Sequence record: PQ850597.1
Reading direction: 5' to 3' (one strand)
Length of the DNA: 47,021 nt
Source: Escherichia phage ChristineMuster_Bas80
Below the pieces are notes generated by a model, which saw only the letters and a program-made list of their open reading frames with translations, was not told where the DNA came from and did no database searches. Below are positions 6,327-8,914 of this stretch, piece after piece (positions within the stretch are counted from its first letter, which is position 1; each line of letters begins with the position of its first letter). The position numbers were made by a program, and so were the translations under genes.

Positions 6327-6935
6327 TTAATCATCAAGTTTCACGCCGGGAATTTTGCCTGCTGCGATGGCTTCATAAATTAGCTTAGCCTCATCCTCGC
6401 GCTTGTAATCTTGCGCTACCATTTCTAATACCGCGCAGATAGATTCAAGTACAGCCTCATGCTTCCTTTCTGCTTCTGTGCGAAATGGGATGAAAACATC
6501 CTTATTGGATGGGGTTATTGCGTAGTAAATCTCACCAGATGGTCTGATAACTATTTTTTCGCCATCAAGACCAATAACCTTGACTTTTCCCCATGACGTT
6601 CCGTTGCTGATATACTCACATTCACACCCAACTGGCGGCAGTCCTTCTCCGTTCCATGCTGAATTTTTCGATGCTGCGAGCGCTGCTTTGTATTGCCAAT
6701 AGGTTACTATCGACTCCTTATGGTCGGAAGATAATGGCGTAGCCCATTCTTCTCCATACCAGAAATGCACAAGGCTATTTCCTGTGTGATGTTTCCATGA
6801 GAACCCCTCATAGTGTGGGTCATTTGTGTCCCATGCGCACAGCGAACCGTCATTATCTTGAGTAATTGACAGCGCGTTTTGAGGCCACCCACCGCGCTTA
6901 GGTAATTCTTGAACCAGTAAATCAATAAGCTTCAT
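6327..6935 (-). CDS. Hypothetical protein (202 aa)
   Basis: ATG at 6935 (MKLIDLL...) preceded by AGGAG; overlaps stop of upstream HNH gene. Confidence 0.5.
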   Translation of the reverse strand: MKLIDLLVQELPKRGGWPQNALSITQDNDGSLCAWDTNDPHYEGFSWKHHTGNSLVHFWYGEEWATPLSSDHKESIVTYWQYKAALAASKNSAWNGEGLPPVGCECEYISNGTSWGKVKVIGLDGEKIVIRPSGEIYYAITPSNKDVFIPFRTEAERKHEAVLESICAVLEMVAQDYKREDEAKLIYEAIAAGKIPGVKLDD

Positions 6936-7407
6936 AATTAAAATCTCCTGCGTATTTAATTCTCGCCTCTTGCGACACAAGCTCTGCCAGCTCAATGTCT
7001 TCGTAGTAGCCCAGATGGATCTGTGTTTTATTTACGCATATCCTTACTCGCCATGAATTTCCGGCAGGATACCAGCTGACTCCCTTCATCCCTGTTTTGT
7101 TTCTGGATGTGATATCCTTGTTGTGCTTATTTTCAGATGAAGTGCATGGCCTTAAGTTGCATAATCTATTGTCATCTCTCACCCTGTTAATATGATCCAC
7201 CTCCTTTGGCATCTCTCCTGTCACGTATAGAAGAGCAAGCCTGTGCGCAAGATAAAGCTTTCCATCAATGCAGATCTGTATGTACCCTTTCCCATTTACC
7301 GACCCAGCCTTTCGACCGCTAAACCCATGTCTTCTTGATTTAATCCACGTGAATTCACCAGATTCAGGGTTATAACTAAGAACACGGAAAAGATCACATT
7401 GTTTCAT
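6922..7407 (-). CDS. HNH endonuclease with AP2-like DNA-binding region
   Basis: Motifs GYIQICIDGKLYLAHRLALLYVTGEMPKEVDHINRVRDDNRLCNLR typical of HNH_3-type homing endonucleases; GGGAGA RBS. Confidence 0.7.
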   Translation of the reverse strand: MKQCDLFRVLSYNPESGEFTWIKSRRHGFSGRKAGSVNGKGYIQICIDGKLYLAHRLALLYVTGEMPKEVDHINRVRDDNRLCNLRPCTSSENKHNKDITSRNKTGMKGVSWYPAGNSWRVRICVNKTQIHLGYYEDIELAELVSQEARIKYAGDFNYEAY

Positions 7408-7840: not shown

Positions 7841-7862
7841 AATTTCTTCCTCACTCATCGTT

Positions 7863-7919
7863 TGATGTAGATACTATGCACCACCACTCAATCTACGTCA
7901 ATAGCCATTGTGATAGAAT
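7863..7919. promoter_or_regulatory. Divergent promoter region with inverted ATCTACRTCA motifs
   Basis: tgatgtagat at 7863-7872 (reverse orientation) and atctacgtca at 7891-7900, then extended -10 TGaTAGAAT at 7911-7919 for the plus-strand lysis genes. Confidence 0.5.
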
Positions 7920-7945
7920 TAATCATTATTTGAACAGGAGGCAGA

Positions 7946-8224
7946 ATGAAACTATCGCAACGCGGCATGGAGGTGTTTGGAATTACCGATGCCGTAGATA
8001 TATCGCCTTACATCACCACTGAGACAACACAGAATCAGTTTGATGCGCTGACAAGCCTTGCCACCGACATTGGCACTGATGCGTTCCGCAAATCAACGTT
8101 GCTGAAGAAACATAATCTTCGCTGCTTCTCATGTGCTGTTGCGCATTTCATCGTGTGGGGCGAGAAGACTGGCAATAAAGCAAAACGCAATGCTGAAAAA
8201 GAGGTTTACTGGTATGGCTATTAG
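7946..8224 (+). CDS. Lysozyme-like protein, apparently N-terminally truncated (GH24/T4-P22 lysozyme C-terminal region)
   Basis: AGGAGG RBS; segment NQFDALTSLATDIGTDAFRKSTLLKKHNL resembles the conserved NQ(F/Y)DAL...FN(I/V)G...STLL block of phage lysozymes, but the N-terminal catalytic region is absent. Confidence 0.45.
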   Translation: MKLSQRGMEVFGITDAVDISPYITTETTQNQFDALTSLATDIGTDAFRKSTLLKKHNLRCFSCAVAHFIVWGEKTGNKAKRNAEKEVYWYGY

Positions 8225-8678
8225 CAAAAACATGAAGGCGTTTCTGGATATGCTGGCGTACAGCGAAGGCACGGATAACGGGCGGCAGAAAACCAATAAC
8301 CATGGCTATGATGTGATTGTTGGTGGCTCGTTATTTACTGACTACTCCGACCACCCGCGCAAGCTGATTAGCCTGCCGAAGCTGGGAATCAAATCCACTG
8401 CCGCAGGGCGCTATCAGGTGCTGGCTAAGTTTTATGATGCATACAAAAAGCAACTGCGCCTGCCAGACTTCTCTCCCGCATCGCAGGACGCCATTGCAAT
8501 GCAGCTAATCCGTGAATGCAAAGCCACTGCCGATATTGAGGCTGGTCGCATTGCTGATGCCATTCATAAATGCCGCTCCCGTTGGGCCTCGCTGCCGGGA
8601 GCTGGTTATGGTCAGCATGAGCAGAAACTGGATAAGCTGATTCAGGTATACAAGGATGCTGGCGGAGTCGTGGCATGA
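8214..8678 (+). CDS. R: Endolysin, lambda R-like lytic transglycosylase
   Basis: Translation KAFLDMLAYSEGTDNGRQKTNNHGYDVIVGG..FTDYSDHPRK...WASLPGAGYGQ is near-collinear with lambda R as recalled; start overlaps upstream stop. Confidence 0.85.
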   Translation: MAISKNMKAFLDMLAYSEGTDNGRQKTNNHGYDVIVGGSLFTDYSDHPRKLISLPKLGIKSTAAGRYQVLAKFYDAYKKQLRLPDFSPASQDAIAMQLIRECKATADIEAGRIADAIHKCRSRWASLPGAGYGQHEQKLDKLIQVYKDAGGVVA

Positions 8679-8914
8679 AAAAACTAAGCAACTGGCTGCT
8701 CGGGGTATGGATTTCATTCTGCTCACTATTGCAGCTATGGCCAGATGCAATGATGCATGTGTGGGTAATGATGCCGGATGACCTGAAAGCGGCGCTACCG
8801 CCAATCGTGGTTAAAGGCGTGAGCTACTCCATCATGCTGGTTGGTATCCTCGGCAAGATGCACGGCATGAGGAAGGAAAACCGGAGGCTGCGCAATGATG
8901 TCAATTCTCGCTAA
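8675..8914 (+). CDS. Putative holin or lysis-associated membrane protein (two TM segments)
   Basis: 79-aa ORF with two hydrophobic segments and a basic C-terminus, ATGA-coupled to endolysin stop, immediately upstream of the spanin genes. Confidence 0.45.
   Translation: MKKLSNWLLGVWISFCSLLQLWPDAMMHVWVMMPDDLKAALPPIVVKGVSYSIMLVGILGKMHGMRKENRRLRNDVNSR

Follow-up and report, generated by a model that had tools for sequence, protein, structure and literature searches.

The lysis region of the phage studied here raises the question of why a small gene resembling part of a lysozyme should stand directly in front of an intact endolysin gene of another family, and whether its product is an enzyme, a decaying remnant of one, or a protein that has been kept in a different role. 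The stretch of DNA analysed (the window; 47,021 nucleotides of Escherichia phage ChristineMuster_Bas80, sequence record PQ850597.1) is a near-complete siphophage genome of ~47 kb of the Skatevirus/Shuimuvirus group. Its first 25 kb share 93% identity over 84% with Escherichia phages Bas77-79, and its lysis region is 94.7% identical to that of IME207.

The lysis operon and its first gene

The following features were identified in and around the lysis operon:

7859..7945, no strand assigned: divergent intergenic control region (sequence read directly)
7901-7873, minus strand: leftward promoter-like site (consensus scan)
7911-7919, plus strand: extended -10-like TGaTAGAAT (sequence read)
7936-7941, plus strand: Shine-Dalgarno AGGAGG of the lysis operon, 4 nt 5' of the half-lysozyme ATG
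7946..8224, plus strand: half-lysozyme gene, ATG start (92 aa, 10.4 kDa, pI 8.6)
8214..8678, plus strand: lambda-R-type lytic transglycosylase endolysin (154 aa, 66% identity to lambda R)
8675..8914, plus strand: holin, DUF7940 (79 aa; Pfam PF25612; phrog_13249 holin)
8895..9383, plus strand: i-spanin, DUF2514 (162 aa; Pfam PF10721, E=1.4e-28; Skate annotation)
9073..9339, plus strand: embedded o-spanin, +1 frame, lipobox LAGC (ORF translation LLLSLAGCSNSS)
9384..9725, plus strand: DUF1353 gene, last of the transcription unit (Pfam PF07087, E=8.6e-25)
9729..9747, plus strand: terminator-like hairpin with T-rich tail, end of the lysis operon (scan)

The half-lysozyme gene, as it is called here, is the first gene of the rightward operon and has the strongest ribosome binding site in the stretch read; the 92-aa ORF and its AGGAGG are both present as the first-pass annotation had described them. 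The additional claim that the ORF begins right after a promoter held only in part. An extended -10-like element is conserved, and the control region as a whole is near-identical in HC6, L042, L045 and L049 despite differing downstream coding sequence, but a consensus scan of 7859..7945 returned, by its own rules, no promoter on the plus strand and a site on the minus strand only. It is for this reason that we infer, rather than map, a late promoter of the lysis operon upstream of the half-lysozyme gene.

The first-pass annotation had pointed to a lysozyme-type central/C-terminal block in the product, and the profile and sequence searches that it proposed gave clear GH24 similarity and not an unrelated protein. 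Residues 19-78 matched Pfam PF00959 (Phage_lysozyme; 43.2 bits, E=5.8e-11, cut-off 22.3) on profile positions 55-114 of 125, i.e. on the second half of the profile only. Solved GH24 muramidases were also matched by sequence (6et6, E=9e-11; P22 lysozyme, 3e-7), and on these scores the GH24 similarity of the half-lysozyme is far beyond chance. A full-length match was obtained with PHROG phrog_10457 ('endolysin'; E=1.1e-40, residues 1-90 on positions 1-95 of 95).

The last 11 nt of the gene overlap the ATG of the R-like gene at 8214, whose product was correctly recognised as lambda-R-like (66% identity to lambda R over 153 aa). This gene has its own GAGG upstream, is assigned to phrog_90 (endolysin), and keeps the AYSEGTDNG motif, in which the Glu of SEGT is the catalytic residue. 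Its product is 95-99% identical in 138 related phage records. An intact lambda-R-type endolysin does therefore, as had been proposed, adjoin a GH24 derivative without its catalytic segment. Further downstream, the Skate orthologue of the DUF7940 holin is annotated as a class II holin. The o-spanin at 9073..9339 had no match in a Pfam search; its start was set by analogy with the annotation of Skate, in which the O-spanin lies at the equivalent offset.

Full-length relatives, the excised segment and the predicted fold

The syntenic phages HC6 (Escherichia), BUCT610 (Klebsiella) and pIS4-A (Aeromonas) have a single 145-aa GH24 endolysin in the same slot, followed directly by the holin and a spanin, and they have no R-like gene. 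The promoter region, ribosome binding site and first seven codons of HC6 are near-identical to those of the window, and its holin is 96% identical. The half-lysozyme shares 48-52% identity over residues 19-88 with the endolysins of these three phages, as well as the lineage signature KHNxxCxxCA, which is common to the half-lysozyme and the full-length endolysins of the lineage. Alignment with these enzymes and with P22 lysozyme, which had been suggested as a means of locating the breakpoint, showed one internal gap of ~54 residues covering the FEG...PD...TxGYGHT region. We take this region to carry the Glu/Asp/Thr catalytic apparatus of the family, with roles as in the T4 and P22 lysozymes. 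Five further residues of the conserved GKVMNGLxxRR loop are also gone from the half-lysozyme.

The first ~11 residues (MKLSQRG...) are kept and are homologous to the N-terminal helix of the full-length relatives. This retained segment, together with the single internal gap, indicates an in-frame excision and not an N-terminal truncation. The first-pass annotation was thus right that the catalytic segment is absent but not that the N-terminal region is missing, as the N-terminal helix is kept and the loss is internal. The half-lysozyme is derived from a GH24 endolysin at the same slot.

AlphaFold2, with a 50-sequence alignment as input, modelled the half-lysozyme as a compact all-helical domain (mean pLDDT 96.6, pTM 0.89), of which 90 of the 92 residues map onto helix A and the C-lobe of 7m5i and P22 lysozyme. 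In this architecture, a short linker connects the GH24 N-terminal helix to the helical C-terminal subdomain, and the catalytic beta-lobe is excised. In T4 lysozyme, residues 13-74 form the N-terminal subdomain, and residues 75-164 together with the N-terminal helix (1-12) form the C-terminal subdomain, which folds autonomously when isolated (bioRxiv 10.1101/353649). As modelled, the half-lysozyme is a natural version of this C-terminal subdomain unit. It is the same unit as the engineered T4 lysozyme fragment (75-164 plus helix 1-12), in which the N-terminal helix likewise packs on the helical lobe and folding is autonomous. That fragment, however, is a laboratory construct of marginal stability without a biological role, whereas the half-lysozyme is natural and conserved and its interface has been re-surfaced. 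In the short forms only, the YN of ...SLAYNIGLGNF... is replaced by T/A plus D/S/A and the G by D, while two full-length relatives (P0259 and that of L049) are unchanged at these positions. From the alignment, these replacements look like a repair of the surface bared by the loss of the lobe.

An H-x3-C-x2-C arrangement (H56, C60 and C63; about 8111-8134) was found to be invariant in all tabulated short forms of 92-96 aa and is also present in the HC6, BUCT610 and pIS4-A endolysins; generic GH24 lysozymes have LN..D/Y..A instead. These residues may represent a metal site or a redox-sensitive pair.

Catalytic residues, selection and allele diversity

In T4 lysozyme the catalytic positions are E11, in an FEG/EEG context at the end of helix A, and D20 and T26 on the beta-hairpin of the N-lobe. 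At the column of the catalytic Glu the window protein has D and the alleles taken together have D/N/E/S/G/Y, without the EG context, and the segment with the beta-hairpin Asp (or Cys) and the Thr is wholly deleted. The two-lobed fold with its substrate cleft is also absent, the model being a single helical domain. Hence, of four testable features of GH24 enzymes, the half-lysozyme has the profile match and lacks the catalytic Glu, the Asp/Thr pair and the two-lobed fold; having failed three of the four, it should not be classified as an enzyme of this family.

Databases nevertheless imply a small active muramidase. The Skate orthologue is described in GenBank as "endolysin/glycosidase, has Ex5Dx8T motif", the gene is called "endolysin" in RefSeq and PHROGs, the score lies above the Pfam threshold for GH24, and the window protein does permit both E9-x5-D15-x8-T24 and the canonically spaced E9-x8-D18-x5-T24. 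Neither triad can be taken as kept, since E9, D15 and T24 vary and the residue of helix A opposite E9 in the alignment is a Glu that is not catalytic. In the 93-aa-type alleles E9 is Lys in 19 of 20 and T24 is A/S/K/R/E, with D18 alone nearly invariant. The genome announcement of Skate, furthermore, names only the transglycosylase as endolysin. With the entire beta-lobe and its Asp and Thr gone, these alignments make muramidase activity of the half-lysozyme very unlikely, and the database labels have very little chance of being correct in this respect. The related idea of a split enzyme, in which a catalytic lobe encoded elsewhere reassembles with the half-lysozyme, can draw on the ability of the T4 lysozyme subdomains to fold separately. 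A tblastn search of the 47-kb window with the N-lobes of the HC6, P22 and T4 lysozymes, however, found no match (best E about 0.8), which leaves this idea with next to no probability.

Selection on the gene was assessed with 38 orthologous loci, comprising 33 from IMG/VR together with GenBank phages and the window (35 distinct DNA sequences). The half-lysozyme ORF is 279 nt long, ungapped and without internal stops in all 38. By the Nei-Gojobori method the whole gene gave a dN/dS of 0.12; codons 19-78 alone gave 0.077, the variable codons 1-18 gave 0.35, and the R gene of the same genomes gave 0.033. A pseudogene should show a dN/dS near 1 with stops or frameshifts among its relatives, and neither was seen; the substitution pattern instead indicates that the half-lysozyme protein is under purifying selection.

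The short proteins are also highly diverse. There are 48 distinct proteins of 92-96 aa, along with forms of 90-101 aa, and identity falls to about 36%; even so, the 49 sequences of the 92-96-aa alleles have 23 invariant positions in common, and none of the more than 50 distinct natural sequences falls below 90 aa. Alleles of 93-96 aa that have diverged deeply (among them P0035, P0036, P0080-P0097 and that of the bat-faeces phage Tbat1_6) share 47-61% identity with the window protein and, where the context is readable, are followed by the overlapping 154-aa R-like gene, the DUF7940 holin and a spanin. The short genes of the window and L042 have a pS of 0.73 (saturated) and a pN of 0.29, as against an identity of about 95% in the promoter region and in R. 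Saturated synonymous divergence between intact alleles shows that these alleles are old and have been exchanged between similar genomes, and refutes a decaying relic.

Several sequences were set aside in this comparison. The contig L046 (ENA ERZ1948697 contig_319) has many fragmented genes with compensating frameshifts, also in its short lysozyme gene (P0033), a pattern typical of an uncorrected long-read assembly, so that protein clusters derived from it are unreliable; P0033, P0029 and P0037, which could be mistaken for broken natural copies, were ignored accordingly. Other GH24 matches of 80-110 aa from a representative search were not accepted as independent half-lysozymes, as they look N-terminally cut and several have artefact-like starts. 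The distant member P0143 (101 aa) was not used as evidence of context since its neighbours have no recognisable function.

Laboratory mutants give a further view of the gene. In a genome-reduction study of phage seszw, about 70 plaque-purified mutant genomes were deposited, and the main text of that article makes no mention of the lysis genes (PMC9825161). Among the best 60 records, at least 55 of the ~70 mutants keep the region 100% identical, even at 37 kb. Two that do differ are MZ375299 (L047:1234-1965) and MZ375313 (L040:2001-2686). Mutant seszw_30L, the former, has a 1-nt deletion at codon 57, so that the first 56 residues, a frameshifted linker and an intact R form a 243-aa fusion. It shows that the C-terminal third of the half-lysozyme is dispensable for plaque formation on the laboratory host, and its viability means that any role of the half-lysozyme is accessory. 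Mutant seszw_100L has the same 1-nt change and, in addition, a 46-nt deletion inside R that creates a stop. Although described as a plaque-purified clone, it is puzzling as no intact endolysin would remain, and the record may be an artefact of genome reconstruction.

The first-pass annotation had left open whether the ORF was a relic or a repurposed fragment. A decaying relic of a displaced endolysin, with its loss pending, would fit the loss of the catalytic parts, the working endolysin of another family next to it and the tolerated laboratory frameshift. Against it stand the 38 natural loci without stops, frameshifts or indels, the dN/dS of 0.12 and a length held at 90-98 aa across alleles with saturated synonymous divergence, and the only broken copies come from the error-prone long-read contig L046 or from a CRISPR-selection experiment. 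We regard a relic as highly improbable; the evidence favours the other half of that proposal, a repurposed, non-catalytic fragment, and the half-lysozyme is best read as a conserved pseudoenzyme accessory to lysis, by a mechanism that we infer.

Partner endolysins and possible roles

Close copies of the two genes are near-equal in number in GenBank, with 139 records for the short gene (at least 60% identity) and 142 for R (at least 80%), although about 70 of them come from a single phage, seszw, as laboratory derivatives. The short gene stands first and overlaps a separate endolysin gene in the window, Skate, Bas77, L042-L045 and L050-L052. A first gene likewise precedes a GH108 endolysin in L081, L084 and L085. 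A distant short branch (P0107 and P0256-P0258; 90-98 aa), with the signature ...KHNxxCFQCA...EREIYYYGY, occupies the same syntenic slot, in which portal, Mu-F-like head protein and small leftward genes precede the lysis operon. In the contexts of P0107 and P0256 (L081 and L084), the next gene after the short one encodes a 171-aa GH108+PG_binding_3 endolysin and the one after that the DUF7940 holin. The overlap between the stop of the short gene and the next start is 11-14 nt with R and ATGA with GH108. As the C-terminal YYYGY is kept before GH108, where there is no overlapping R start, the overlap cannot be what conserves it. The short gene keeps its place as the first of the lysis operon and is paired with two unrelated catalytic endolysins.

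Two genes may be evolutionary intermediates or recombinants. L085 (95-538) encodes a full-length, two-lobed protein of 147 aa (P0259) upstream of the same GH108 gene, with Tyr at the position of the catalytic Glu and Arg at that of the Thr. L049 (332-763) encodes a full-length GH24 protein with intact catalytic residues and a short-type C-terminus, followed by an R-like gene. Both are single contigs of ~1.1 kb, and the architectures in IMG/VR are two clean ones only, full-length alone or short plus R, with no equivalent of the L049 type; for these reasons both are suggestive only. L049 in particular, which could be an assembly chimera or a recombinant as well as a real intermediate, was given low weight.

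Modular exchange of lysis genes, which had also been proposed, is borne out by HC6, in which one full-length GH24 gene replaces the short gene and R, and by the relatives that pair the short gene with a GH108 endolysin. HC6, with its full-length GH24 gene, and L045, with a 93-aa allele plus R, both have holins that share 96-99% identity with the holin of the window, and the holins of Tbat1_6 (again a 93-aa allele with R) and BUCT610 (full-length gene) share 98%. The holin alleles did not co-vary with the short-allele type, and R hardly varies at all; the holin was therefore dropped as a clue to a partner, its alleles being shuffled independently of the short-gene type. Since the holin alleles are independent of the module, the single full-length gene and the pair of short gene and endolysin, whose two members always travel together, behave as alternative cassettes. 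The comparisons indicate that recombination in the interval from the conserved promoter to the holin exchanges one for the other.

We consider it somewhat more probable than not that the half-lysozyme is a functional, non-catalytic GH24 derivative kept for its benefit in lysis, an accessory that acts by binding. An in-frame excision removed the whole catalytic N-terminal subdomain and joined the N-terminal helix to the helical C-terminal subdomain; the dead full-length P0259 fits a trend towards loss of catalysis. Cleavage of the cell wall is left to the gene immediately downstream, lambda-R-type here and GH108 in some relatives. The half-lysozyme would be expressed first after the control region, in translational linkage with the endolysin, and would presumably be released together with the catalytic enzyme on holin triggering. 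It could then serve as a small accessory at the step of murein degradation, binding and not cutting, and assist or modulate the enzyme or its substrate, being kept for a fitness benefit during lysis. Its action in lysis, and by binding, is a proposal; what the comparisons establish is its origin, its fold, the loss of the catalytic apparatus, purifying selection, the linkage to two endolysin types and its dispensability for plaque formation.

There are points against an accessory binder. From the alignments, no signal of co-evolution points to a partner, the holin being shuffled and R almost invariant, and part of the purifying selection could stem from the need for a highly expressed leader ORF to give a harmless, well-folded product. 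In addition, the equivalent of F104/Q105 and the 137-145 loop, which we take to be the substrate-contacting segments of the C-lobe in T4 lysozyme complexes, are altered in the short forms, the former being variable (D/S/A/E/V) and the latter shorter by five residues, so that canonical murein binding would be weakened. With these segments degraded, a regulatory role through contacts with a protein partner becomes a serious rival, for example in tuning the triggering of the holin or in countering a host factor; the ancestral C-lobe would already have had this second job and been kept when catalysis changed hands. The rest of the lobe is conserved while the positions lining the cleft have degraded, the fragment is kept beside two unrelated catalytic endolysins, and its alleles are deeply diverged between near-identical flanks. 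The new surface at the excised interface is also acidic (D15, D18, D41 and D45), and the tail of the holin is strongly basic. Yet the holin alleles do not follow the short-gene type, holins 96-99% identical to one another occur in both full-length and short cassettes, and the holin is a candidate partner only. Since the short gene and the endolysin move as a unit, a link to the endolysin fits at least as well, and we consider a purely regulatory protein of this kind unlikely, if still worth taking seriously.

It could also be supposed that the ORF is a translational leader and nothing else, offering a promoter-proximal ribosome binding site and coupling onto the endolysin, its sequence being merely soluble and harmless. 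The strongest Shine-Dalgarno (AGGAGG) does precede it, its stop overlaps the next start in every arrangement, whether with R or GH108, and seszw_30L, which is viable, still translates through the region as a fusion. A leader of this type does not account well for a dN/dS of 0.08-0.12, for the 23 invariant positions, or for natural alleles that all have at least 90 aa, since in a phage with limited capsid space a pure leader should tend to become shorter; R and GH108 moreover have GAGG/GGAG sites of their own. The strength and pattern of constraint make the pure leader the weaker rival, and a rather improbable one.

More speculatively, half-lysozymes could form an unrecognised class of accessory or regulatory proteins of lysis cassettes, in which the C-lobe of the ancestral GH24 endolysin had a second, non-catalytic function that R and GH108 cannot replace. 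It would for this reason have been kept as a free-standing protein of ~10 kDa, while the catalytic lobe was first inactivated and then excised, possibly repeatedly. This is put forward as a tentative and on balance doubtful generalisation.

Among known systems, the closest are the GH24 muramidases of the P22 gp19 and T4 e type, and nearest of all the 145-aa endolysins of HC6, BUCT610 and pIS4-A, with which the half-lysozyme shares homology, the genomic slot (with promoter and first codons as in HC6), the A-helix and the C-lobe. It differs from them in having no N-terminal subdomain (with the FEG Glu, the Asp and the Thr), in the five missing residues of the GKVMNGLxxRR loop, and in the replacement of cleft-facing residues. 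The muramidase domain of SpmX in Caulobacterales is a GH24 domain co-opted for protein localisation, a case that the half-lysozyme also resembles, although it is only half a domain. In SpmX, both lobes are kept together with the cleft, and the domain belongs to a larger bacterial membrane protein outside any lysis cassette. At most, a working analogy is offered by PlyCB of PlyC, the extra cell-wall-binding subunits of Lys170 and the C-terminal fragments of CTP1L and CD27L, where a non-catalytic product likewise stands beside a catalytic one. Those products are dedicated wall-binding domains, assemble with the enzyme into hetero-oligomers and come from phages of Gram-positive hosts, whereas the half-lysozyme is half of a catalytic domain and belongs to phages of Gram-negative hosts. 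Gp1 of mycobacteriophage Ms6 is also small, first in its lysis cassette and encoded in overlap with the endolysin gene, but bears no relationship in sequence or fold. It is a chaperone-like protein, encoded just upstream of and overlapping lysA, which assists holin-independent export, and nothing suggests such export for the half-lysozyme.

The canonical lysis cassette of phages infecting Gram-negative bacteria consists of holin, endolysin and spanin, and a fourth conserved, non-catalytic component beside two endolysin types would give a new handle on the tuning of lysis. The half-lysozyme would also represent a natural and datable pseudoenzyme made by the clean excision of one folding subdomain, mirroring decades of folding work on T4 lysozyme. 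Its possible intermediates include a full-length form with dead catalytic residues and another with a short-type tail, and signs of surface repair are seen at the interface. The value of the locus thus lies in a correction of annotation, a natural case of subdomain excision and a candidate fourth component of the Gram-negative lysis cassette. The ORF itself is already known and widely annotated, but as "endolysin": the ~139 GenBank phage records mostly carry the label "endolysin" or "lysozyme", and in some, e.g. RefSeq IME207, the gene is not annotated. In the literature on Skatevirus phages, no description of the family as a lobe-less conserved pseudoenzyme was found, "endolysin" being mentioned generically. 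Many of the phages that carry the gene have been proposed for biocontrol of Salmonella, E. coli or Klebsiella, and cloning of the half-lysozyme as an enzybiotic would most likely yield an inactive protein.

A number of minor differences were observed in the surroundings of the lysis genes. A gene resembling a homing endonuclease with HNH_3 and AP2-type domains (161 aa, 6925-7407, minus strand) lies in the leftward operon just 5' of the lysis promoter and is missing at the equivalent position of IME207, which suggests a recent mobile insertion. The DUF1353 gene is present in IME207 and absent in Skate and Bas77, and its IME207 orthologue is named 'tail assembly chaperone' in RefSeq, a label that is doubtful given the position of the gene. 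An extra ORF of 56-68 aa occurs between holin and i-spanin in IME207 (L002:2695-2901), at L043:4950-5120 and in several IMG/VR loci (L007, L010, L012 and L039), and is absent from the window. Its end repeats the C-terminal coding sequence of the holin (…RLRNDV.SR), and it resembles a small insertion flanked by a duplicated segment. Elsewhere in the window, a single tRNA-Met (CAT) was predicted at 22061-22137 on the minus strand.
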